NCBI GenBank assembly: GCA_963703905.1
Contig: CAVPFY010000006.1
Location: 198,841 to 262,840 of the forward strand
DNA length: 64,000 nt
Direction of reading: 5' to 3'
Source: an uncultured Chloroflexia bacterium
Lineage (GTDB): Bacteria > Chloroflexota > Dehalococcoidia > DSTF01 > WHTK01
Each line of letters begins with the position of its first letter. Within the stretch, counting starts at the first letter, position 1. Both the position numbers and the translations under genes were made by a program. The notes beneath the pieces were generated by a model that was not told the origin of the DNA, did not search any database, and saw nothing but the letters and a program-made list of their open reading frames with translations. Positions 10,796 to 32,207 of the stretch are shown here, piece after piece.

Positions 10796-10874
10796 TTGGT
10801 GGGCCCTCTCGGATTCGAACCGAGGACCGACGGAATTAAAAGTCCGCTGCTCTACCGGACTGAGCTAGAGGCCC
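10796..10874 (-). tRNA. tRNA-Lys (anticodon TTT)
   Basis: Minus strand reads GGGCCTCTAGCTCAGTCCGGTAGAGCAGCGGACTTTTAAT(T)CCGTCGGTCCTCGGTTCGAATCCGAGAGGGCCCCACCA. It has the U8/TAGCTCAG D-arm, a CTTTTAA anticodon loop, a GGTTCGAATCC T-arm and an encoded CCA. One extra T after the loop breaks canonical pairing and is probably an indel. Confidence 0.7.
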
Positions 10875-15030: not shown

Positions 15031-15080
15031 CGGTTCGAGGGATTAAAAGTCCGCTGCTCTGCGACTGAGCTAGGGGCCCG
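15031..15080 (-). other. Partial second copy of the tRNA-Lys 5' half (acceptor 5' strand, D-arm, anticodon stem-loop)
   Basis: Minus strand reads CGGGCCCCTAGCTCAGTCGCAGAGCAGCGGACTTTTAATCCC..., about 85% identical to the 5' ~45 nt of the tRNA at 10796..10874. It then diverges and has no T-arm or acceptor 3' strand. It lies at the left edge of the AT-richer island. Confidence 0.55.
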
Positions 15081-15574: not shown

Positions 15575-15985
15575 TCAGCCTGACGGATGTTCCAGTATCG
15601 TGTCTGGTTCCTCCACCTGGAGAGCTTCGTAGAGCGTCGATTTCTCAACGATGATCTTCTTTTTCAGAAATTCAAGCCCAGCTGCAGCTCTTCGTTCGCA
15701 TGAGGCATATGGTCGGTCGGCATCCTCAGGCGACAATGTTTCGACGAGCCTGCGAAGGCGGCCATCAGTATCGACCGAGCCAACATTCCACTTCGTCGCA
15801 ACCCGAGACATCGCCGCCAGAGGCTTCTGGAGACGGTTGGCGAATGCAACGCCAATTGCAACTTTATAGGCGTCAACTTCTTCGTTAAACCAACCGCTTC
15901 CCATCAACTCGGCTAGGATCAGTGCTCCGTCAGGAGTCACTCCCATTGTTTTCTTATCGTCGCGTTCTTCTGGCATCGGCCTCAC
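15575..15985 (-). CDS. Hypothetical protein (136 aa), last gene of the island operon
   Basis: ORF starts 3 nt after the stop of the SMC-like ATPase. No motif I recognize. Confidence 0.45.
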   Translation of the reverse strand: MRPMPEERDDKKTMGVTPDGALILAELMGSGWFNEEVDAYKVAIGVAFANRLQKPLAAMSRVATKWNVGSVDTDGRLRRLVETLSPEDADRPYASCERRAAAGLEFLKKKIIVEKSTLYEALQVEEPDTILEHPSG

Positions 15986-15987
15986 CC

Positions 15988-17958
15988 CTAAAGTGCTTCA
16001 ATCCTAGATCGGGTTGGCGATCCGTCTCGCAGGAGTCGATAATGACGCCCAATTTTGCCGGCCAAAGGCAGTAGGTCAGTGTCAAGGTTCATTTCGCCTG
16101 ATTGAACCAACAGTAGGACTTGGGGGCTCAGCAATGGGAGAAATTTCAGAATATTCTCGCGATGAGTGGTGTCGAGGCGTCCAAATGGGGTGTCCATGAC
16201 AAGTGGACCTTCACGCACGGAAGATCGGTTGAGGGCGCCAATTAACGATAAAGCGACAACCTGCTCTGCGCCTGCGGAGCGATCAAGAATGACTCGATTC
16301 GTGTCGTCCACTATGTTCAACCCATAGCTATCATTAATAGAAAGTCCAGAGTATCCGGGCTCGGTTGTAAGAGAGCGAAATATCCGAGACGCCTCGTCTT
16401 GGACTTGGACTTTGAGATCCTCTCGGAATTCCTCGATTGCCCAATCGAATAGGTCTCGAAGGCCGTCATATACCTCGGCCTCGGTGGCAATCTTCGGGTT
16501 GGCCTCGGGGAGCTTGGAAATCTGACTCCTTACTCGTCCGAGGAGGCCACGCTTTTCTTCTCGCTCAGTCGTAATTGCACGCATGTTGCGCTCAATTTCA
16601 TCCAATTCCACGACTACAGCATCGTAAGCCCGCTGAGTCTGGCGAATATCCTCGCTTGGATGCTGAGTGAGTCTCTCGTTAATCTCATTTAGCGTGCGCT
16701 GATCCCGTCGTATGTCGAGGTCTAAGCGACGATATGCTCTCTCGGCTGCCTGGATTGCGGGCAAATGCTGAACGCTTGCTAATTCTCGCAGGCCGCGCAT
16801 CAGAGTAGCGTCCGGGAAGGCCCCTTCTGCAGCTTCGGTCTCTCTCTGGTCCAATCGAATACGCAGTGCCTTGGACCGCTCTGACATCTCAGCCTTCGAC
16901 TCTTCATTCAGGGGTTGGCCACAGATGGGACAGGTGCCACTGTTTTTCAGTTCTTCCAGCGTACTCATCTCATGTCGCAAACCAACCAAATCGTCATGGA
17001 TCAGGCGAGCGCGGTCGAATGCCGTCTCTAAAAGATCCAATTGTTTACGTGCAGCAGCTCCAACAGGCTCCCACCAACCAAGGCTGACGTGACTCTTGAT
17101 CTCCCGTTGGAGCTCTAGCTTGTGCTCTTCTCCTTCCTTGACACGGGTTTCTAGTAAGGCAGCCTGTGTTAGATCTGCTTCCTCGGAAGCGTATCGCTCC
17201 CTTCTTTCGTTGAGATCGTCCTTCTGCTGTTCAAGGCTCGCTCGCTTTTCGACGAACGCAGCCATGTCTCGGTTTAGGGCTTCGATGCTGGCTTCGTAGT
17301 CTCTCGCTTCCTTTGCCAATGCTGCAGATCTTTGGCCCTGCCGTAGCGCTGCAGTTTGCCGACGCTGCGCCTGCCCGGTGAGTGAGTCTAGATCCTCGAC
17401 GGCGAGCCTAAGTGCGGGCAAGCCGAGGATGCGTTCAATAGCTTGCTTGATTATGTACGACTTTCTCGGATCAACGACTAGATCTTCGTACTCTGCGAGC
17501 ATTTCGCCGTCAAAGAGGAAGAACTGGGAGATGTCCTTGTGAAGGATGGACTGGACGATCGCGGGGATATTTTGTTCGTCCTCGAACACCCCGTCACGGC
17601 GCAAAGCCGTCTTGTAGGTGAGCAGATAGGCTGCCTTCGGGGGTCCGTTGGACTGGATCTGCCGTTCGAGGTGGTAGTCGTGGCCTCCATGACTGAAGTC
17701 GAGTTCAGTCCGCATGTGGTACTGGCCAATGTCGATGGCGTCATAACTTATTAGCCTGTAGTCCTGCTTGCGGACTGATTGCCTACCAAGAGCATCGCCG
17801 TAGAGGCACCAACGAATTGCATTCAAGATGGAGGTTTTGCCGCGCATGTTCTCTCCGTGCAGAACCACGACTGGGGCATTAGCCGAAACCTCAAGGTTGA
17901 GCTCATGCTCACCAAAAAAAGGGCCGAAGTTAACGAGCTTGAGTTTCTTGATCAGCAT
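15988..17958 (-). CDS. SMC/Rad50-like ABC ATPase of the DndD/AAA_23 type with a central CxxC zinc-hook motif
   Basis: N-terminal LKLVNFGPFFGEHELNL...VVLHGENMRGKTSILNAIRWCLYG (Walker A). Long coiled-coil-type low-complexity middle with CPICGQPL. C-terminal ...VVALSLIGALN...LVMDTPFGRLDTTHRENILKFLP...LLLV (signature, Walker B, D-loop typical of DndD-like proteins). GGAGAG RBS lies 5 nt upstream. Confidence 0.8.
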   Translation of the reverse strand: MLIKKLKLVNFGPFFGEHELNLEVSANAPVVVLHGENMRGKTSILNAIRWCLYGDALGRQSVRKQDYRLISYDAIDIGQYHMRTELDFSHGGHDYHLERQIQSNGPPKAAYLLTYKTALRRDGVFEDEQNIPAIVQSILHKDISQFFLFDGEMLAEYEDLVVDPRKSYIIKQAIERILGLPALRLAVEDLDSLTGQAQRRQTAALRQGQRSAALAKEARDYEASIEALNRDMAAFVEKRASLEQQKDDLNERRERYASEEADLTQAALLETRVKEGEEHKLELQREIKSHVSLGWWEPVGAAARKQLDLLETAFDRARLIHDDLVGLRHEMSTLEELKNSGTCPICGQPLNEESKAEMSERSKALRIRLDQRETEAAEGAFPDATLMRGLRELASVQHLPAIQAAERAYRRLDLDIRRDQRTLNEINERLTQHPSEDIRQTQRAYDAVVVELDEIERNMRAITTEREEKRGLLGRVRSQISKLPEANPKIATEAEVYDGLRDLFDWAIEEFREDLKVQVQDEASRIFRSLTTEPGYSGLSINDSYGLNIVDDTNRVILDRSAGAEQVVALSLIGALNRSSVREGPLVMDTPFGRLDTTHRENILKFLPLLSPQVLLLVQSGEMNLDTDLLPLAGKIGRHYRLLRDGSPTRSRIEAL

Positions 17959-18210
17959 CTAGCTCTCCAGGAATTCCTCGTCCACTTCAATGGAAATCAG
18001 TTCCTGCACTTTTCTTTGGAAAGGACGACGGTCGTCATCAAATTGATTTTCCCAAGCATCATTGAATACGGTTCGTACCAATTGTTCCGTCAGCACGGCC
18101 TTTGCATGGGGATCATTGATCTGGTCGACAAGCTTGGGAAGGTTGGCGATGAGGAGTTCCTGGGCGCGCTCCTTCGTTCGTGGTTCTGCGGCAGACGGCT
18201 GGTCGTTCAC
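17959..18210 (-). CDS. Small acidic hypothetical protein (83 aa), translationally coupled between the PLD-helicase and the SMC-like ATPase
   Basis: Its start overlaps the stop of the upstream gene, and its stop abuts the SMC-like ATPase start. No recognizable domain. Confidence 0.45.
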   Translation of the reverse strand: MNDQPSAAEPRTKERAQELLIANLPKLVDQINDPHAKAVLTEQLVRTVFNDAWENQFDDDRRPFQRKVQELISIEVDEEFLES

Positions 18211-20351
18211 TATTCTTCGTCCTCGAACTCCGTAACGGCCTCCGCCAACTCGGGCAGACCTAATCGGCGTGCCTTATTGCGAAGCGTATGACTAGCTGAG
18301 CGGTTTATCGCATTCTGTGCGAACTGAAATGCACGCGCTAATTCGACGCGATGGATAGCCAATCCCTCGCCCTTGTGAGATGTCGCTGGACTAGGAACGG
18401 TCAGGACATCATGGATTATGGCAAGCGGCTTGTCTGCAGCGGGGCGAAGGAGGCGTCCGCGTCGCTGGATAAACTCACGCGGATTCGAAGAGGAAGCAAG
18501 TACGAGGGCCTTATTCACCTCTGGGATATCGACGCCCTCATCGAGACAGCCGATGGCCACCAAGACTCCGCCGTGCCTACGGAAGTGTTCCATTGACTCT
18601 CGTCGCGACCCGAGCATCGCCGAGTGGTACTCCAGGGCAGGTAGCCCGAGGGCATTCAGAGATTCTAGGACTGACTTCAGTTGCCGCCGGTTATCACAAT
18701 AGACTAGCCAGCGGTCACCATCTCTGAACTCGCGCGACAAGACGTCAGCGGCCATAGCCACCTTGCCTTCGGCGTTCTTCACGATTCGCGCGCGTTTTAT
18801 GAGCAACATCTTGAATTGGAACGAGAGTTCCTTTTCTCCTGTCAGGTCGTCTGGAAGGAGAGCGTAAGCCTTCTCTATCTTCGTGGTGGCATCATCCCAG
18901 GCGGCCTGCTCTGATTCCGTGAGTGAAACTTCGTGCGTCCAGTATTCATATGGAACTAGCGCACCGGTCTTGATTCCGTCCTTGAGAGTAAAGGCTGGGG
19001 CCAAGTCTCCGGCGAAATAGCTTCGAATAGCAGAGGTGCCCTCGGGATCACCGTACCGTCGGGGCGTGGCACTTAGACCGAGGCGAGCACCGGCCGAGAT
19101 AGTCATGCATCTTCGATAGGAAGGACTGCCAAGCCGATGAACCTCGTCGGCGACAACGAGCAGATGATCTCCCGGAACAATCCGACTGAGAAAACGCTTG
19201 GATGCGGCGGTTTGGACAGTGCTAATCGTCAGCCTGGGACCGAGGTAGAGGTCTGACCTAGTAAAATCCGCGAGGCTATCCTCCCAACCGCGGTCTGACT
19301 TGCTTCCCCCGACCACTAGAAACCTTGGGTCGAGGTCGTCTAGGACTTCTTGAGCTATCTTGAACCATTGCAGGGAAAGTAGTTCACTGGGCACTAAGAC
19401 CAACGCGGGCCTGCCGTCCTTTATCCAGTCACGAATTATGGCTAGCGCAGTGATCGTCTTCCCGGAACCTGTCGCATGAGTGACAATCCCAGCGTGGCCC
19501 GACCTGTGCCAACTACGTAAGGCAGCCAATTGGTGAGGTCTCAGGTCATAAGACATTCTAGGTTCACCGCGCTCCCGCGACTCGTTTTCAAGTTCGACAT
19601 ACTGCTCTTGCCGGCCCAGCCCAAAGAAAGGCTTCACGACCAAGTCATGTTCGTTGCCGCGCCAGAGGGACTCGAAATAGGCCGCTACCGCCTGAACTCT
19701 TCCCATCTCCTCTGGGGACTCCCAGGACTTGAACGTAGCGATGACCTCGTGATTCCCAAGTGTTGAAAATGCGTTAGCACTCTCATTTGCGGAGCCGACG
19801 CTAGCGATGCGTCTCCCGCTCAACGCCGTAAAAATCGCGACTTTGGAGTGGAACATGCCGTTCGACGTGGTTGTCGTCGCGATTCTGATGTCTAACACGC
19901 CGCTCGCCACTAGCAACCTCAAGAGGTGCGTTGTCGACTGAGCGAGTGAAAGCTCGTTCAGAGCTGCACCTCGTTCTTGCGCGGTTGACGCAAACCTTTG
20001 CCGATAACCTTCCGAAATCGCTTCCCAGTCGGCATCTGAAACTCGAGGTGAGCAAACGAGGCGCATCCTTCCGCGTCTATCCGCGAACTCCAAAATCTCG
20101 GGCTTGACTAGTTCAAAGACCGAGCTGCTAAAGAATCCTGCGGCGCGGTCGTACTTGATCGCCGTAGCAATTGAAGGCGCATACAAGTCCTGAGCAAGGT
20201 TGCACCCACTGCTCGTGTGCCAGCCAATTTCCGGCTGACGGTCAACGAGAGAGTCAGGAGGCGTGTTCAGTGAGTCTTTCCTGTTCATCACTCCACGATG
20301 GTAGATGCTGATTGCCCGAGGGCCTAAAGTAAAAAACTTTACTTCGAGCAT
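18210..20351 (-). CDS. PLD-family (HKD) nuclease domain fused to an SF2 DEAD/DEAH-box helicase (ResIII plus Helicase_C)
   Basis: N-terminal HKD motif MFHSKVAIFTALSGRRIASVGSANES. Helicase motifs LRPHQLAALRSW (Q), HATGSGKT (I), VVADEVHRLG (II), GLSATPRR (III), VLVAIGCLDEGVDIPEVN (V), QRRGRLLR (VI). 713 aa, intact. Confidence 0.85.
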   Translation of the reverse strand: MLEVKFFTLGPRAISIYHRGVMNRKDSLNTPPDSLVDRQPEIGWHTSSGCNLAQDLYAPSIATAIKYDRAAGFFSSSVFELVKPEILEFADRRGRMRLVCSPRVSDADWEAISEGYRQRFASTAQERGAALNELSLAQSTTHLLRLLVASGVLDIRIATTTTSNGMFHSKVAIFTALSGRRIASVGSANESANAFSTLGNHEVIATFKSWESPEEMGRVQAVAAYFESLWRGNEHDLVVKPFFGLGRQEQYVELENESRERGEPRMSYDLRPHQLAALRSWHRSGHAGIVTHATGSGKTITALAIIRDWIKDGRPALVLVPSELLSLQWFKIAQEVLDDLDPRFLVVGGSKSDRGWEDSLADFTRSDLYLGPRLTISTVQTAASKRFLSRIVPGDHLLVVADEVHRLGSPSYRRCMTISAGARLGLSATPRRYGDPEGTSAIRSYFAGDLAPAFTLKDGIKTGALVPYEYWTHEVSLTESEQAAWDDATTKIEKAYALLPDDLTGEKELSFQFKMLLIKRARIVKNAEGKVAMAADVLSREFRDGDRWLVYCDNRRQLKSVLESLNALGLPALEYHSAMLGSRRESMEHFRRHGGVLVAIGCLDEGVDIPEVNKALVLASSSNPREFIQRRGRLLRPAADKPLAIIHDVLTVPSPATSHKGEGLAIHRVELARAFQFAQNAINRSASHTLRNKARRLGLPELAEAVTEFEDEE

Positions 20352-21376
20352 CAGGGCTGGAGGTCATTTAGGTCGTCGACTAGATTCATGCCCGCGCGGA
20401 AGTCCTTTTGTTCCAGTGGAAGAAGGATGACCTCTCGCACGCCGCCATGGTCGTCTAAAAGGTCGATTCCGCGATCAAGAACAAAGGAGAACTGTTCCGT
20501 AGCGAGAAAGCGTGCGTGTTCTAGATGGGAAGCCGTCGTTTCGGCTTTAACAACGATTCGGACCGTCACTCTAGGTGAGAGCGCTTGGAGATCACTCTCC
20601 AAGCGCTTTAGAGCTGCTAGAACCTCTTTCTGGCCTGCCGGACTGATCAGATTCGTGCGGATGCCCGTGTATATCGTTAGTTCTCGTTCATCAGTGCCGG
20701 TCGGGCCAGTCGCGTCCATCTGCTCGACCACCCAACGCGTCGTTGAGCGGTAGCCGAGGTTGATTGTTGCTTCGCGCTGGCCGCTTACCTTGGCTACGAC
20801 ATGGCTGCCGAGTGCGTAATCAACGATCGTCAGCCGGCGAGCGTACTGGAAGAGTGGCTTCCAAACGAGATCCTCGATTTGACTGATAGTGAATTGCCCT
20901 GGCGTGGAACGAAAGCTGCGGGCTGCAGCCAGGTTCTCCCGGCCTTCATAGCTGGCGTATTGGAGGGGGTCTTGAAAATGAATCGGACCAGCGTCGCACA
21001 GATGCACATCGGGACAAGCCGTGGGGCGGACAACAAGATCCGTCTGGCATATGGACGTCAAATAGAGCGCCACTGAGCAAGCCTTTTCCTGGCATTCAGT
21101 CTGTGGAGACTTCATGCCATCGGCGGGAACTCTCACGATTCGATGACGAGTGTCAAGATTCCGAAGCAGTTCCTTGGCTCGCTTACGTCTGTTGACGTCC
21201 CAGCGATCAAGGTATTGGGTTATGGCCTTTCTGATGGATCCTTCCCGATCGAGGAGCAGTAAGGTTCCGTACTGCGCGTCCACAAGAAGGTTTAAGATCA
21301 GCGCTTCATACACTTGGCCTGCGGGCTCCACAGAAGAATCGTAAGCCTTAGGAAGGTGCACGGTCTTGATTAACAT
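20351..21376 (-). CDS. Hypothetical protein (341 aa), coupled partner of the upstream ABC-type ATPase
   Basis: Start overlaps the ATPase stop and its stop overlaps the PLD-helicase start. No recognizable catalytic motif. Confidence 0.5.
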   Translation of the reverse strand: MLIKTVHLPKAYDSSVEPAGQVYEALILNLLVDAQYGTLLLLDREGSIRKAITQYLDRWDVNRRKRAKELLRNLDTRHRIVRVPADGMKSPQTECQEKACSVALYLTSICQTDLVVRPTACPDVHLCDAGPIHFQDPLQYASYEGRENLAAARSFRSTPGQFTISQIEDLVWKPLFQYARRLTIVDYALGSHVVAKVSGQREATINLGYRSTTRWVVEQMDATGPTGTDERELTIYTGIRTNLISPAGQKEVLAALKRLESDLQALSPRVTVRIVVKAETTASHLEHARFLATEQFSFVLDRGIDLLDDHGGVREVILLPLEQKDFRAGMNLVDDLNDLQP

Positions 21377-22936
21377 CAGGAGAACATCTCGCCGTAGGCT
21401 TCTTCAAAGAAACCATCCGGCCAGTCGTCGAGAAAGTCGCCATCCTCGCCGAGACGCAAGACCTCACAAACTGAACCGGAGGACTTCTTTCGCACGTAAA
21501 TGACGGAAATGTCAGACGGGCCAAGCTGCCCTTCTCGGATGAGCCTTTGAAGTCGGAGGATGAGGTGCTCGCTATGCGTCTCAATGAGAAACTGGTTCGG
21601 TGTGGGTCCTGAAATCGCGTCCGCAAAGAGTGAGCCGAGTTCGGCTTGGAGCCTCGGATGCAAATGTATCTCTGGTTGTTCTATGAGAACTGTGGCCCGT
21701 TGGGATAACAACGACTGCACAATGATAGGAAGGACTTGGCTTATACCGAAGCCAACTTCCAGAAGGTTCATTTCAACGCCAGAGTCATTGTCCGTCAATA
21801 GGAGCCTAAAGACGTCGTCCGTTTGGCCGCCCCTGGAATGATCAACACTCAGAACGTAGCCAATCCCGAAGCTCTTGAGATAACTATTTACGCGTTCCAA
21901 AACTTCTGGTCGCGAACTAAGAAGCTCTGGCAAGTTCTCTCCCGCCTTACCCACTGTCGCCGCCGGGTTACCACTTGCGATGTAGTATCTCGAAGGATAT
22001 TCGCGTAAAGGCCCGAGGTAAGTCATCCGGTCCCATTGCGCTTTAGCACGCGTAGCTAGAGCGATGGCCCAATCAAATGGGTTAGGGCGCCATGCACCTT
22101 CGGAAGGGAGGGTTGTTGCAGGGAGCGATGCAGGGTCATTGAACCGCGATGCAAGCCGTGCCTTTTCGTGAGGTATGAAGCTCCGAAGAAGCAATACCTC
22201 TTCGTTCCCAACAGACTCAATGTCTTCTATGAACAGCTTCGAGCTGTAATCTGAAAGCCTGCGAGCGTGGTCAGTCAGCCGAGCATATTCCTGGCCAGGC
22301 TGTGTTCCTTCTTCTCTCATTCGGTCCACTAGATCGATTAGGTTGCCCAAGTATTCTTGACGCTGCTCCCGAGTTGCTCGATAAAAGTCCTCCCAGAACG
22401 GGTGGTCTACATTGACACGCGGGGAACCAACACTCAAGGAGTCACTATTCGCCGAAGAAGGCACGAGAGGAGTAACTTCCTTACTCCGAGACCCGAGAGT
22501 CAAGATCGGCTCATGAGAGTCGTTGCGATAGATCGGAAGCTCGCTGAGTTGAATTGTCTTGGTCGCGTCGTCAAGAAAAAATCGGATACCGAGCCCCATT
22601 GCACTTTCGCCGGTGGGGTCCATCACTACCCGCAACGGGTCAGCTAACGTCATGTCTGAATCATCCAGTAGGAGTGCAATCTCGCAGAGCCGCGAGGAGT
22701 CGTGACCATACACAAAGTCACTGAAGCCCCCAAGGTCAGTAAGACGACCTCTCGTAATTCAGGAAACGGTTTGTATCACCTTGCTCAGCTAAAGTTTGCT
22801 TGAGTAACAATAGAGACTGTAACAGCGACGATTTGCCAGAACTATTGGGGCCGAAAATTAGCGTTATTGGAGCCAACGGGACGTGAACCCGGTTTCCGAA
22901 GGCCTTGAAATTTTCCAATACCAGCGACTTGAACAT
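21376..22936 (-). CDS. AAA_21/ABC-type ATPase with DUF3696-like C-terminus (OLD/PARIS/AbiL-class defense ATPase), one frameshift near 22720
   Basis: N-terminal 66-aa ORF LENFKAFGNRVHVPLAPITLIFGPNSSGKSSLLQSLLLLKQ (Walker A). It continues in ORF 21376..22713 with YLGPLREYPSRYY (Q-loop-like), LEVGFGISQVLPIIVQ (signature-like), TVLIEQPEIHLHPRLQAEL (Walker B/D-loop) and IETHSEHLI (H-loop). Confidence 0.75.
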
Positions 22937-23772
22937 TAGTGGTCCTTCTGTCGAATCACTCGACTTCGTCGAGATCGAATGCCCAAAGCAAGCAGCCGAG
23001 CTCGGAGTGTATGCGGCTTGAGGCCGAGCGATTTAGCCGCAGCTGATGCGTTTCCGGCCTGTGAGTCTAAGGCTCGAATGATGATTTCGATTTCTTGTGC
23101 CTTCAAATAGTCGCTAAGCCCAACGCCCTCGGACAGCTGCTGGCCTGGATACGCGGAAGGTTCTGCCTGATTCTGAGTTAGTTGGGCCTTCAAAAAGAGA
23201 TTCTCTAAACGCAGGTTCTCATTCTGACTTCTCAGCAGCCGCAACTCATTGTCTCCACTTGGCGGGACAACGGTCGGTAGATCCGAGCCATCTAGGTCTA
23301 CGGGTCGCCAGAATGGAACGCCGGGAGTTGCCAGGTCAAGCGGAGTCGCAGTTAGCATCTTGGCCGGAAGTATCTTGGATTGAACCAGCAAGAACCACAC
23401 GGTCTGCATCTGGGGTGTGCCTGGAGACAGATAGACGTAATAGCTACGCTCTTGATTGCCTTCGTCATTGACGATCTCTTCACACGTCTGGCGTGTTGCG
23501 TGAAAGACTTCCGTATAATCCGTCACATTAACTACATCCACGACCTTCTGAGTGACTCTCATCGCGGGGTAGAGCTTTCGGCACTCGCGAAGCAGCGCTG
23601 TCGCGCGAGTTGCATAATCATTAGGTGACCCGAATAGATTAACAAGGAAATAGATGGCAGCAAAACGTCTTGCGGAGAGCAACGATAAGATAGGCCCTGG
23701 TTCATCCCGTTTGGTCCTCGGGTTAAACCACGTCGGATCCCTTGAACCGACCCAGGTTAGGAGCACATCCAA
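22936..23772 (-). CDS. Putative regulator with N-terminal CARF/RtcR-N-like domain and C-terminal Fis-type HTH, no AAA+ domain
   Basis: N-terminal MDVLLTWVGSRDP...YVYLSPGTPQMQTVWFLLV. C-terminal IEIIIRALDSQAGNASAAAKSLGLKPHTLRARLLALGI is a classic Fis/NtrC-type HTH. Its stop overlaps the start of the ATPase gene. Confidence 0.55.
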   Translation of the reverse strand: MDVLLTWVGSRDPTWFNPRTKRDEPGPILSLLSARRFAAIYFLVNLFGSPNDYATRATALLRECRKLYPAMRVTQKVVDVVNVTDYTEVFHATRQTCEEIVNDEGNQERSYYVYLSPGTPQMQTVWFLLVQSKILPAKMLTATPLDLATPGVPFWRPVDLDGSDLPTVVPPSGDNELRLLRSQNENLRLENLFLKAQLTQNQAEPSAYPGQQLSEGVGLSDYLKAQEIEIIIRALDSQAGNASAAAKSLGLKPHTLRARLLALGIRSRRSRVIRQKDH

Positions 23773-23807: not shown

Positions 23808-24374
23808 TTATAGGTAACTTCCTGACCTCGAAGCCGGTATGCCGTCTCGTGGGAGGTCAGTCATGTCTCCAACCAGGCTTTCTAGCAGGGCGCAGTCTGC
23901 CTCAAGCGAGATCTGAAGCCGTTCAACGGTCTCAGAAATCTTTACGGCGTTGCTTCTCGCGGTGTCCGACCACTTCCGAACTTCTGAGAGGTCCTTTGTT
24001 GCACGCGCTATGCGTTCGATCGCATGACTGAGCCTCTCGAGTTCTGGGTGGCTTCCTCTCTTGCTTGTTCTGGCGCCCGCAAGGAGCGAGACCCCTACGG
24101 CCAATGCTGCCCTCAGAAGCCACCCGGTTGGGTCAATATCGGGATCCCAGACCACAATGACATCATTTCCGACTCGCCAGATAGGCTCTAGGTTGGCGGG
24201 TGCCACGCTCTGCGAAAAAACAAAAACACCAACTTCAGCTTGCCTATTCTTCCGAGCCGTCGCCAACTCATCGAGGGCCTTCTTGAGCGAGTAGCCTGCG
24301 GCGTCCTTCGCTTCGACCACGATGCGCCCCGCATGGAGCCGCGGAGTCATTGCTGAGCGTGACGACGAAGTCAC
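23808..24374 (-). CDS. Hypothetical protein (188 aa), possible PD-(D/E)xK-like nuclease fold (weak)
   Basis: GRIVVEAKDAAGYSLKKALDEL resembles an (E/D)xK nuclease motif in a beta-strand context. Tentative. Confidence 0.4.
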   Translation of the reverse strand: MTSSSRSAMTPRLHAGRIVVEAKDAAGYSLKKALDELATARKNRQAEVGVFVFSQSVAPANLEPIWRVGNDVIVVWDPDIDPTGWLLRAALAVGVSLLAGARTSKRGSHPELERLSHAIERIARATKDLSEVRKWSDTARSNAVKISETVERLQISLEADCALLESLVGDMTDLPRDGIPASRSGSYL

Positions 24375-25049
24375 CTACCTTGCAACGGGGCAGGTCACCA
24401 GGAAAGCTGCTGGTCTCATCGGGAGTGTGTCCACGATGCGTAGCAAAGTCGATGACAACTTTACCGACATCTTCTTGGAAGTCCCAACCATGAAGGGGAG
24501 AAGCAAGACGCTCCCTCTTTGAAGCAGCGACCCCAGCAAGCGTCGTCCTAACATCGGTCTGAAACTCCTTTTGGGTCTGACTGAGTTCAGTAAGGCGCAA
24601 ATCGAGTCGCCCGCGAGAGACGGCTCAGGGATGAAGACATCATCGTCGAGGGAGAATTGCTGGCTGATGGTCAAAGTGGCCTTTTCGGCTTGGCGAACCA
24701 ACCGGGACATCGACGAATTCGGATCGTCCAGCGACATTTCCTTGAGGAGTAGATCGATGTCGGTCTTGAATTCCTTCTTCATACTTCCATTCGCGTCTGT
24801 CGAATCCCTAGGGAGGCGCGACAAGGCTGAGCTCGGGTCGTCAAGTGTGAAGTCGGCCGCCAGCGACTCTCGTTGCGCCTCCAAGGCTTCAGTGACCACC
24901 CTTTCTAACATTGCCAAAAGGCCAGCCTTCTCGGACGGCGACAGCAATCGGAAAAGAGGGCTTTCTGTTCCAACGTGTAGGGCCAGCGTGTGCGCAAGAG
25001 TGCCGTCGGACCCATTGAGGTGCCTACGCAAGAGGCCGTCGGGCCTCAC
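24375..25049 (-). CDS. Hypothetical protein (224 aa) with internal LDDPxSxxSRL repeats
   Basis: FTLDDPSSALSRLP / MSLDDPNSSMSRLV / FSLDDDVFIPEP repeats. Adjacent to the previous ORF; a 66-aa ORF at 25024..25224 may be its frameshifted N-terminus. Confidence 0.4.
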   Translation of the reverse strand: MRPDGLLRRHLNGSDGTLAHTLALHVGTESPLFRLLSPSEKAGLLAMLERVVTEALEAQRESLAADFTLDDPSSALSRLPRDSTDANGSMKKEFKTDIDLLLKEMSLDDPNSSMSRLVRQAEKATLTISQQFSLDDDVFIPEPSLAGDSICALLNSVRPKRSFRPMLGRRLLGSLLQRGSVLLLPFMVGTSKKMSVKLSSTLLRIVDTLPMRPAAFLVTCPVAR

Positions 25050-25680
25050 CGCCGTCCTTCACGAGTCGCTCAATCCTCTGAGTAACGTTGCCGGTAAGAG
25101 GATCGAAGTACTGGGCGAGTTCCGAAGTCAGGCCACTGCGCAGTTGGACTGCATGGGACGTCAAGGTCCTCTCCAAATCGGACAAAAGGCGGTCCGACTC
25201 CTGCCTTAAGGAGACAATATCCATCTCCGCGAGCGTGCTTTAGGGAAAGCACGCCCAATCGCAGCGCTCCGAGCGCATAGCTCGTCTGGTCGCCTCGGGT
25301 TGCCTGGTTATCTCCTGGATGACCTCGGCGTCGATGACCTGGAGATGGAGCAATATCCCTGTGCTCTTGACGGGACTTCTTGGCTGGTCATATCCGCACA
25401 ATAAGCAGATCGACCGGATTGACAAAAGGTAAACACTTTTACTTCTACCAATTGCTCGACGCCCTACGCGCAGCGCACGTGCCGCGTTTAGGGCCATGGC
25501 GCCAACCGCAGCGGCACCCGACGGTGAACTGGCGAGCCCCTTTGTAAAGACACCAGCCTTGACTGCCAAAAGCGGCCTGAATCCAGTCGATTCGCCGCCT
25601 TCGGCCACTATTTCGCCGAGGGTGGCTGTGTGACAATTGCGCCGGTGGTAAAACAACTTGCTCTCAGCCTGGCGCCTTTA

Positions 25681-26632
25681 TTGCCACGTCTGCGTCGTAA
25701 TCGCGCGGCGTTCGTGCGGCGTATAAGACCACGCTGGGCACGTGCTTCCGCGGTGATAGCCTTCCATGGCTGAAATCAATCCCAGATGCGTCGGTCGACC
25801 TAATACTGACATCCCCGCCATTCGCCTTGAACAGGAAAAAGGCTTATGGCAATGAGCCCGAGTCAAGCTATGTTGAGTGGCTGCTGCCTTTCGCCGATGA
25901 GGTATGGAGGGTGCTTAAGCCGTCCGGCAGTTTCGTTTTGGAGCTTGGATCGGCGTGGATGCCTGGCAGTCCGACTCGGAGCCTTTACCAATTCAAAGTC
26001 CTGCTCGCCTTGACCGGCAGAGACGTAAAGCATTTCACCTTGCCCAGGACTTCTATTGGTATAACCCGGCCCGTCTTCCTTCGCCCGCACAATGGGTAAC
26101 CATTGACCGTGTTCGGATAAAGGATTCAGTGAGTCCCATATGGTGGCTCTCAAAAACGGAACACCCAAAAGCTGATAATCGTGATGTACTGAAGGAATAC
26201 AGTTCTGCACAGAACGATCTCTATAAGAATGGGTTTAATGCTGGACTAAGACCGTCTCATCACCGTGTATCCAAGGAAGCGTTCAACAAGAATAATGGTG
26301 GCGCTATACCCGCAAATCTATTACCTATAGAAAATCTGCTAACAGTCGCAAATACTTCGTCGTCCGATCGTTATCTCAAAGCGTGTCGAGAAAGAGGCAT
26401 CCTGGTACACCCAGCAAGATTCCCATCGGATATCCCTCATTTCTTCATAAGTTTCTTGACGGACATTGGGGATGTAGTTGTTGATCCTTTTTCAGGAAGT
26501 AACGCTGTAGGTGCGACGGCCGAGATCTTGCAGCGTCGTTGGCTTTCTTGTGATTTGGACATGGACTACGTGAAAGGTAGCCGGTTCAGATTTGATCCTG
26601 TTCCAAGTCTACTGCCACTGAGTCCAAGTTGA
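25681..26632 (+). CDS. Beta-class N4-cytosine/N6-adenine DNA methyltransferase (N6_N4_Mtase family), about 2 frameshifts
   Basis: RGDSLPWLKSIPDASVDLILTSPPF (motif IV, SPPF, preceded by the typical GD..L..LPD.SVDLI context). NPARLPSPAQW...W mid-region. C-terminal VVDPFSGSNAVGATAEILQRRWLSCDLD (motif I, FxGxG AdoMet pocket). The IV-then-I order is typical of beta-class enzymes. Confidence 0.75.
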
Positions 26633-29679: not shown

Positions 29680-30243
29680 ATGATCGCGCATGCCGTTAGC
29701 TACAAGTTCACTGTGGACAAGTTCGACCGCATGACCGAGGCCGGAATATTGCGCGAGGACGATCGGCTGGAGCTAATTGAAGGAGACATCGTCTGCATGC
29801 CACCCATAGGCAGTCATCACTTGTGGGCGGTCAACAGATTGACGAATGCCTTTGCCGTTCTTGCCGTTTCTCGCAGGGCGCTCATCAGCGTCCAGAACCC
29901 GATCTTCGTCAGCGACCAATCAAGGCCACAGCCGGACGTGGTCCTGCTTCCCTTCAGCGATACTCCTGACCGCGACCGTCTACCAGCGCCAGCAGACGTG
30001 CTCCTGCTTATTGAGGTTGCAGACACCTCGGTGGACTATGACCGCTTGATTAAGCTGCCCCTCTACGCCGCCGCCGGTATCACTGAGGTATGGCTGGTTG
30101 ACCTGACCGAGGACAGTGTGGAGGTCTACCGTAAACCCTCGGGTGACGCCTACACGGAAATGGTCACGCACGTTCGCGGCGACACCATCTCGCCACTGGC
30201 CTTTCCCGACTTCGTCGCCAAGGTCGAAGAGATCATCGGCTAG
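29680..30243 (+). CDS. Uma2 family endonuclease (DUF820, restriction-endonuclease-like fold)
   Basis: FTVDKFDRMTEAGILREDDRLELIEGDIVCMPPIGSHH...DVLLLIEVADTSVDYDRLIKLPLYAAAGITEVWLVDL has the family-typical ELI.G and D...EV.. catalytic signature. Confidence 0.75.
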   Translation: MIAHAVSYKFTVDKFDRMTEAGILREDDRLELIEGDIVCMPPIGSHHLWAVNRLTNAFAVLAVSRRALISVQNPIFVSDQSRPQPDVVLLPFSDTPDRDRLPAPADVLLLIEVADTSVDYDRLIKLPLYAAAGITEVWLVDLTEDSVEVYRKPSGDAYTEMVTHVRGDTISPLAFPDFVAKVEEIIG

Positions 30244-31841: not shown

Positions 31842-32207
31842 TTAGGCGTCGTTCAATTCCAAGAGTCCACGGAGGCGCACGGACACTGCTCGCATCGTCG
31901 GCCTGGAAACAGTCCCGATAACATGAGTCAGACGGGTTTTATCAAGAGCGCGAATTTGCTCACAAAGAATATCGCTTTCTAAGTCCAAACCTCCCTCCGG
32001 TGGCCGCACTCTCACGTGCATCGGCCATGCCCGCAGACGGGAGGTCACCGGGAGTACGACAACGAGAGGACTAGGACCTGACAGGTAGGTGTCGGCCGAG
32101 ATGATCAACAAGGGCCTTCGGCCCGATTGCTCGTGGCCTGAGGTGGCGTCCAAGGTTCCAAGCCAGATTTCACCTCGTTTCACAGAGGCCGCCCGTCCGG
32201 CCCCCAC
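31842..32207 (-). CDS. mazF: MazF/PemK family type II toxin (endoribonuclease)
   Basis: VKRGEIWLGTLDATSGHEQSGRRPLLIISADTYLSGPSPLVVVLPVTS...LESDILCEQIRALDKTRL is a canonical PemK/MazF pattern. Overlaps the upstream antitoxin gene. Confidence 0.75.
   Translation of the reverse strand: MGAGRAASVKRGEIWLGTLDATSGHEQSGRRPLLIISADTYLSGPSPLVVVLPVTSRLRAWPMHVRVRPPEGGLDLESDILCEQIRALDKTRLTHVIGTVSRPTMRAVSVRLRGLLELNDA

Follow-up and report, generated by a model that had tools for sequence, protein, structure and literature searches.

The window analyzed here, a 64-kb stretch of contig CAVPFY010000006.1 in whose numbering all coordinates are given, carries what we identify, with a probability of about 93%, as a complete pbeABCD operon: a "CxC Zn-hook ABC-ATPase / DndE-cognate" anti-invader system of the subclass that is paired with a DNA methylase and not with phosphorothioation genes. 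The four pbe genes are intact, translationally coupled and in canonical order. The set has already been described as PbeABCD (2019) and as the CxC-ABC ATPase system (2020-2024), which are one and the same system, and it is modelled in PADLOC; the copy in the window is a fairly divergent new example. An earlier reading of this DNA made from its letters only (the sequence-only reading) had noted that neither a Dnd nor a Lamassu context is present and thereby implied novelty, which does not hold: the set is PbeABCD, its solitary occurrence has been published and its methylase partner is present as a pseudogene.

All four genes lie on the minus strand. pbeA (18210..20351) encodes a 713-aa HKD(PLD)-SF2 helicase, identified with PADLOC, Pfam and NCBIfam; pbeB (17959..18210) encodes a small acidic protein of 83 aa, assigned by position, motif and phmmer; pbeC (15988..17958) encodes a coiled-coil ABC ATPase of 656 aa that belongs to the "CxC" Zn-hook clade, the sister group of DndD, and was identified with PADLOC, Pfam and an AlphaFold2 (AF2) model searched with Foldseek; and pbeD (15575..15985) encodes a 136-aa putative divergent DndE cognate, assigned by fold, hhalign and position. 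In A-B-C-D order the products thus measure 713, 83, 656 and 136 aa. The pbeA stop and the GTG start of pbeB share one base (18210), the TAG of pbeB directly abuts the ATG of pbeC, and the pbeD open reading frame (ORF) begins 2 nt past the pbeC stop; public annotation takes an ATG 9 nt further in, giving 133 aa. Each ORF is full length, aligning over 98-100% of its homologs, and every conserved catalytic residue is kept except the HKD Asp of PbeA. The sequence-only reading had described a 656-aa coiled-coil ATPase with a CPIC motif, whose gene is coupled on its upstream side to those of a PLD-helicase and an 83-aa protein and on its downstream side to that of a 136-aa protein, and the ORFs and their junctions bear this out. 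It overlooked the methylase pseudogene 5.3 kb upstream of pbeA, the low-GC island in which the operon sits, and the coupling that continues upstream, where the same one-base sharing joins genes for a CARF-HTH protein (22936-23772), an ATPase (21376-22936) and a 341-aa protein (20351-21376) to pbeA. A scan for promoters and terminators returned nothing above shuffled expectation.

The 656-aa protein is recognized by the PADLOC PbeC model with E=3e-133, residues 1-641 aligning to profile positions 1-645 of 646, and 307 homologs were found with E<=1e-10, which puts the feature well past chance. Pfam detects AAA_23 (E=1.6e-15). The DndD-like ends quoted in the sequence-only reading are VVLHGENMRGKTSILNAIRWCLYG at residue 31 (Walker A, GENMRGKTS) and VMDTPFGRLDTTHRENIL at residue 587 (Walker B/D-loop); within the Walker A segment G35-ENMRGKT42 (17833..17856, minus strand), N37, G40, K41 and T42 are invariant. 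Near the midpoint, at residue 343, stands CPICGQPL, the sole CxxC of the protein, and its C343-P-I-C346 (16921..16932, minus strand) is a predicted zinc hook by its invariance and its place in the apical loop of the AF2 model. Across 49 homologs, down to 30% identity, C343, C346 and W295 are invariant together with residues of the Walker A, signature, Walker B, D-loop and H-loop motifs. In the AF2 model (predicted local distance difference test, pLDDT, 86), residues 341-351 form the short loop that joins the long helices 297-340 and 352-378, which is where an apical hook should lie; the apex of the model is this 11-residue loop with the CxxC, and no hinge is present. The Pfam family Rad50_zn_hook (PF04423) matches residues 334-360 with E=2.2e-4 and 21.4 bits, under its gathering score of 24.3, and we regard the cysteine pair as hook-like by position and conservation, yet by profile not a member of PF04423. 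PbeC is, on the predicted model, a Rad50-like coiled-coil ABC ATPase with a clade-defining apical C-x-x-C, which we predict to be a zinc hook.

Two other identities were weighed for this protein, and both are very improbable. One is a canonical DndD acting in DNA phosphorothioation with dndA/B/C/E encoded outside the window. DndD of the DndABCDE system shares with PbeC the coiled-coil ABC lineage, a coiled coil of ~400 residues, DTPxGRLD Walker B/D-loop ends and an obligate partner of DndE fold; source annotation calls a 77% identical homolog "DndD", and DndD models match the window protein both in PADLOC (best 1e-55) and in NCBIfam (TIGR03185, E 2.5e-52). The TIGR03185 score, however, is 178.3 bits against a cutoff of 245.85, PbeC models fit about 80 orders of magnitude better, and the operon partners are PbeA, PbeB and PbeD, not DndC/E, whereas DndD works with DndC/DndB instead of an HKD helicase. 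In 20 related loci that encode both paralogs, the window protein groups with PbeC (27-46% identity) and not with DndD (17-20%), and the hook cysteines are found in 79/79 PbeC and in 0/20 canonical DndD paralogs, which have a 7-residue gap at that place. The hook cysteines thus separate PbeC cleanly from DndD, as direct evidence. The conservation of the CxxC and the distance from canonical DndD were also the points on which the sequence-only reading had suggested its proposal should be judged, and both support that proposal. Nor were other parts of such systems found elsewhere in the 64-kb window: Dnd, Ssp, DndFGH and Lamassu families gave no match with PADLOC at 1e-5, and tblastn with DndB/C/E representatives found none, so the sequence-only reading was right that DndABCE, SspABC and Lamassu partners are absent. 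The other identity is a Lamassu (LmuB), Wadjet (JetC) or Rad50/SbcC-type protein with a new effector. Foldseek with the PbeC model does rank Rad50 first (E=1e-18), followed by SMC heads, JetC, MukB, LmuB and SbcC (E values up to 1e-11), and the subthreshold Rad50_zn_hook match points the same way; but at 11-15% identity this likeness is of superfamily level, the best family-level matches are all PbeC, and Pfam and PADLOC found no LmuA/LmuC, JetABD, kleisin, Mre11 or SbcD partner in the window. Rad50 of Mre11-Rad50 remains the best structural match: like PbeC it pairs an ABC head with an antiparallel coiled coil whose apex carries a CxxC, the site at which two Rad50 protomers share one zinc ion. 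PbeC differs in its much shorter coiled coil, and no Mre11-type nuclease partner is encoded in the operon or the window; zinc binding and dimerization by PbeC would be expected by analogy.

PbeA matches its PADLOC model with E=1e-174 and combines the Pfam domains PLDc_2, ResIII and Helicase_C; the closest NCBIfam model is TIGR04095, "DNA phosphorothioation system restriction enzyme" (E=3e-86, below cutoff). Conserved residues include H168, K170 and G186-S187-x-N189-E190, as well as helicase motifs I (ATGSGKT), II (DEVH), III (SATP) and VI (QRRGRxxR). Judged from its alignment, PbeA has the full set of SF2 motor motifs and, in one HKD motif, still has the H, K and N/E residues.

PbeB is acidic, with 18 D/E against 10 K/R. 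A small ORF occupies the place between pbeA and pbeC in 75 of the related genome loci described below; ~73 of them qualify as plausible PbeB, with a median length of 68 aa. A Q[F/Y]..DR core is found in 68 of 72 filtered PbeB, the window's WENQFDDDRR included, with a median net charge of -5, while phmmer with the window PbeB finds matches in 7 genome loci and 10 metagenome loci. By these features PbeB is a conserved acidic mini-protein. Because family searches with PbeB and PbeD came back empty, we turned to fold and profile-profile tests for PbeD. Its AF2 model (pLDDT 93.7) returned DndE structures (4LRV/5WTU) as all of the top 14 Foldseek matches in the PDB, with target-normalized TM scores of 0.6-0.68, probabilities up to 1.0 and a best E of 0.035. 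hhalign of PbeD against 19 canonical DndE from related loci gave E=1.9e-5 and a probability of 78% over 113 columns. PbeD gave no match to the Pfam DndE family PF08870, and a profile search of PDB sequences returned noise only. We accept PbeD as a divergent DndE cognate with a predicted DndE fold.

The same four genes recur together. A scan of species-representative genomes found 278 relatives, of which we examined the best 80, and an independent set of 80 metagenome loci brought the total to 160. pbeA lies immediately upstream of pbeC in 80/80 genome loci and an ORF in the PbeD position follows pbeC in 79/79; the order PbeA-PbeB-PbeC-PbeD is kept in nearly all 160 loci, and the metagenome set gave the same picture. 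The ATPase and its partners therefore co-occur in other genomes, a check that the sequence-only reading had proposed, with PbeA, PbeB-position and PbeD-position ORFs flanking pbeC in 80/80, ~73/75 and 79/79 cases. What accompanies the core varies: a methylase with an ~875-aa multi-HTH protein in 31 of the 80 genome loci, canonical dndB/C/D/E with the multi-HTH protein in 21, a methylase only in 11, a methylase with MTaX1 in 7, the multi-HTH protein only in 2, and none of methylase, dnd, multi-HTH or MTaX1 in 8. The nearest PbeC relatives reach 46% identity among species genomes, one metagenome contig has a PbeC at 77%, and the closest members of the metagenome set (40-47% identity, L081-L090) are all compact cassettes of methylase plus pbeABCD. 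Pbe without dnd genes is therefore normal for the family and the rule for the window's clade, in agreement with the published figure for solitary Pbe: 320 of 553 pbeAC (58%) lack dndCD, and 155 of those lie near methylases (PMC6459918).

Two further observations concern these neighbourhoods. The ~875-aa protein, which has matches to RNA polymerase alpha-CTD, sigma-70 region 4 and HARE-HTH, follows pbeD in 54/80 genome loci (for instance L048:7724-10351, L008, L011 and L026) and occurs in methylase-linked and dnd-linked systems alike; in five loci it is replaced by a 390-aa MzaA-like protein with sigma-70 regions 2 and 4. Of such proteins near these systems, the literature mentions only HARE-HTH-restriction endonuclease fusions. 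Separately, five loci that have neither the usual methylase nor dnd genes (L024, L038, L063, L068 and L074) carry a conserved three-gene set (clusters c14-c15-c16) beside pbeA or pbeD, one member of which (~453 aa) is weakly similar to the methylase; the set may be an alternative modification module.

A linked modification module accompanies Pbe frequently, though not universally. The window has no dnd genes, and a methylase of the partner family is present there as a pseudogene. This N4/N6-type DNA methyltransferase with an SPPF motif (25626..26632, plus strand) was delimited by tblastn with intact homologs and matches PADLOC MTase_II with E=1.3e-62. Its tblastn matches run in frame +3 and then in frame +2, switching near 26012-26033; an in-frame stop stands near 25695-25697, and no start codon precedes the SPPF motif. 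The remains are 50-57% identical to methylases of related Pbe cassettes, and methylase homologs accompany Pbe in 53/80 genome loci and 44/80 metagenome loci, adjacent in all nearest relatives. The window methylase is the customary partner of Pbe in this clade, in decayed form. The SPPF motif is typical of N4-cytosine enzymes such as M.PvuII, whereas the nearest NCBIfam models are adenine methylases, matched far below their cutoffs, and we therefore left the target base as N4/N6-type.

PbeABCD was defined as a four-gene unit in Haloterrigena jeotgali A29 (Xiong et al., 2019, Nat Commun 10:1688; PMC6459918), where it consists of the PLD-helicase PbeA, a 66-aa PbeB, the "SMC-like" ATPase PbeC and a 152-aa PbeD. 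All four genes are required there for virus defence, which depends on host phosphorothioation and shows no toxicity without the modification; viral DNA was not visibly degraded and a replication block was observed (PMC6459918). The window operon has the same genes in the same order, forming a single tightly coupled unit, with PLDc_2, ResIII and Helicase_C in PbeA, AAA_23 in PbeC, and PbeB and PbeD of similar size (83 and 136 aa, against 66 and 152 aa in H. jeotgali). It differs in that the archaeal operon adjoins dndCDEA and is phosphorothioation-dependent, while the window has no dnd genes and belongs to a clade with an N4/N6-type methylase, broken here; moreover, H. jeotgali is a haloarchaeon whereas the window host is bacterial-type and high-GC, and the HKD Asp is substituted in the window. 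Our literature search found no newer mechanistic papers on Pbe.

The same set was described independently by the Aravind lab, whose earlier ABC-ATPase study, as cited in Sasi Kumar et al. (2024, NAR 52:1005; PMC10853773), places a "CxC" Zn-hook ABC ATPase as the sister clade of DndD. As described there, the CxC ATPase comes with a cognate "clade-2" DndE of divergent sequence, an HKD-SF2 helicase and a small protein that evolves rapidly, sometimes with cytosine-N4 or C5 methylases and MTaX1, and is often independent of DndD systems; DndE itself is a DNA-binding double-RHH protein (PMC10853773). The window matches this set in its Zn-hook ABC ATPase, divergent DndE, small protein and HKD-SF2 helicase. 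It differs in its motif, since the window and all 79 relatives have C-x-x-C, mostly C-P-x-C, and not the literal C-x-C of the name. The PbeB of the window clade has a conserved QF..DR core and not a purely disordered look, the window is without MTaX1, and an unrelated CARF-HTH/ATPase/orphan module is inserted between methylase and pbeA. The sequence-only reading had proposed an SMC-like DNA sensor coupled to a PLD-helicase effector. As a functional guess, a DNA-engaging coiled-coil ABC ATPase coupled to a PLD-helicase effector agrees with published proposals, but the "SMC-like" label is contested: the Aravind lab clade is a DndD sister with a Zn hook replacing the SMC hinge, and Foldseek ranks Rad50 ahead of SMC. 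Type I/III restriction enzymes and DISARM are also comparable, with an SF2 translocase fused to a nuclease-family domain and a self-marking methylase, and DrmC of DISARM is likewise PLD-type; Pbe adds the Rad50-like ATPase/DndE pair and the mini-protein, and in the single case with experiments, activity itself, beyond self-protection, called for the host modification.

Several points weigh against our assignment or against parts of it. PbeB and PbeD have no PADLOC, Pfam or NCBIfam match even at permissive thresholds, and their assignment draws on position, motif, fold and profile-profile comparison, the last being only moderately strong (78% probability, with a Foldseek E of 0.035). Among the PDB fold-search matches of PbeC there is no DndD, PbeC or other Pbe structure. 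The ~875-aa multi-HTH protein common in the family is absent from the window and its closest relatives, as is the 390-aa MzaA-like protein. In PbeA the HKD Asp, present in 67/74 homologs, is replaced by Ala176; the nearest relatives, L001 and L002, have Thr or Ser there. This replacement makes nuclease competence uncertain in this clade; the literature itself disagrees on whether PbeA cuts DNA. The frameshifts in the window could in principle be assembly errors, though none falls in a homopolymer. Finally, experiments cover H. jeotgali Pbe only, and a mechanism for methylase-linked Pbe would be drawn by analogy.

The operon lies in a low-GC island of ~11.6 kb (~15.0-26.65 kb) with a GC content of 0.50-0.57 against 0.66-0.69 in the flanks, which holds the pbe genes, the upstream module and the methylase. 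At its left edge, where GC drops from 0.65 to 0.53, we found a partial copy of tRNA-Lys(UUU), namely its 5' half (15037..15080, minus strand; Rfam tRNA 22 bits, E=0.08), ~41/44 bases of which are identical to a tRNA at 10800-10874. The fragment looks like the footprint of a site-specific integration. No integrase was seen in the window, although a sister contig encodes one, and a search for att sites of the island gave no convincing long direct repeats, the best being a 13-mer (15223 / 27083) that may be due to chance. The tRNA-Lys(UUU)-like gene at 10800-10874 (minus strand), 4.2 kb from its half-copy, has an odd anticodon loop according to ARAGORN.

Between methylase and pbeA, an overlap-coupled run that ends in pbeD begins with a putative regulator, CARF(RtcR-like)-HTH_8 (22936..23772, minus strand; Pfam RtcR 1.7e-10 and HTH_8 5e-7; PADLOC RtcR_PspF2 CARF 2e-26), in which a Fis-type HTH is attached to the CARF and the AAA+ sigma-54 module normally seen is missing. 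The protein may sense a signal and regulate the defence genes of the island. The next gene (21376..22936, minus strand) specifies an ABC-type ATPase (AAA_15/AAA_21/DUF3696) that is frameshifted near 22715-22740, not in a homopolymer, so that a 66-aa Walker A ORF and a 445-aa ORF stand in different frames; its PADLOC matches are PDC-M55A (4e-45), NsnB (2e-35) and HEC-03B (4e-35). The 341-aa orphan protein follows (20351..21376, minus strand), its stop overlapping the pbeA start. It has no match in Pfam, PADLOC, NCBIfam or the PDB and a single homolog (71% identity) among 5.8 billion proteins, found in the sister locus, and it may be an effector partner of the ATPase. Upstream of the run, ORFs of 224 aa and 188 aa (23808-25049, minus strand) share one frame and are divided by a lone stop at 24375-24377; the corresponding position of the sister locus is taken by one gene of 509 aa. 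They match no family except a faint Mrr_cat (E=0.007) and are probably a third inactivated gene. We considered a split Shedu for this pair and rejected it, as neither ORF matches SduA and the SduA and CARF3 matches fall in other ORFs of the window. The sister locus, on the metagenome contig whose PbeC is 77% identical, has the same gene order with all genes intact, including the ATPase gene (519 aa), plus the integrase. Module proteins are 71-80% identical between the two loci, with order and overlaps kept; beside Pbe, the CARF-HTH/ATPase/341-aa module was found in none of the other 160 loci examined.

Other possible defence genes in the window stand apart from these. A putative endonuclease of the Uma2 family lies outside the island at 29680-30240 (plus strand; PADLOC PDC-S03, E=1e-14), as does a PemK/MazF-like toxin at 31845-32207 (minus strand), and other window ORFs give PADLOC matches to SduA (DUF4263), CARF3, PDC-S14 and PD-T4-6.

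Whether this PbeABCD still works, and whether it works by itself, are separate matters from its identity. The whole island may be in the course of being lost, with pbeABCD no longer functional, a possibility we take seriously while leaning against it. Three neighbours are damaged, namely the methylase (stop and frameshift), the ATPase (frameshift) and the 224-aa/188-aa frame split by a stop, archaeal Pbe gave no protection without modification, and the HKD Asp of PbeA is lost; but the four pbe ORFs are full length with their other catalytic residues kept, and L001 and L002, nearest relatives that are intact, have likewise replaced the HKD Asp. This alternative concerns current activity and not identity, and is compatible with the PbeABCD assignment. 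Because defence needs modification and its loss is non-toxic in archaeal Pbe, a copy beside a dead methylase is plausible and probably inactive: by analogy, the window pbeABCD is probably inactive unless a compatible methylase acts in trans, and that the system is at present outright non-functional is, in our estimate, a tentative conclusion of less than even odds.

A more far-reaching alternative is a seven-gene system in which Pbe is activated by, or works together with, a CARF protein that responds to a nucleotide signal. Stop/start overlaps do link CARF-HTH, ATPase, 341-aa gene and pbeA in an uninterrupted run, and the sister locus keeps the same order and overlaps. Yet the module is missing beside Pbe in all 160 other loci, its ATPase is frameshifted while pbeABCD is intact, the ATPase families (PDC-M55A, NsnB and HEC-03B) anchor separate two-gene candidate systems, and defence systems commonly nest within islands; we consider the seven-gene system unlikely. 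It is similarly doubtful that Pbe, with its methylase dead, has been rewired here to act without a modification mark, for example as an abortive-infection nuclease-helicase, or that it stands under CARF-HTH and cooperates with the ATPase and the 341-aa protein; the one support for these readings is the overlap-coupled seven-gene run kept in two loci with 71-80% protein identity. If true, a CARF-linked Pbe would connect a Rad50-like machine that scans DNA with signalling by cyclic nucleotides or RNA ends.

For PbeABCD as such, a mechanism can be proposed by analogy with the family literature, Rad50 hooks, ABC head engagement and the precedent of type I/III enzymes. Two PbeC protomers would join via a zinc ion shared at their hooks and via ATP-driven engagement of their heads. 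Together with the putative DNA-binding PbeD, PbeC might clamp DNA and scan it for the host modification mark, and on DNA judged foreign, PbeC/PbeD would license PbeA. PbeA would then translocate and either stall replication, as in the archaeal phenotype, or nick or cleave DNA through an HKD site formed by two PbeA molecules, with PbeB possibly serving as a regulator or adaptor that modulates the licensing of PbeA.

The identification in itself matters little, as the system is published, included in PADLOC and widespread, with 278 species-level genomes in one scan. Beyond it, the analysis adds direct evidence for the predicted DndE fold of PbeD. The residual interest of the locus lies in its rare embedded module, in the methylase-linked subclass and in a naturally orphaned copy of it. 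The window documents the methylase-linked PbeABCD subclass, which is dominant among the relatives examined, whereas experiments so far concern the phosphorothioation-linked Pbe of H. jeotgali. It also offers a natural case in which the methylase has decayed and pbeABCD has stayed intact, which fits the report that Pbe is harmless, and not self-toxic, without modification.

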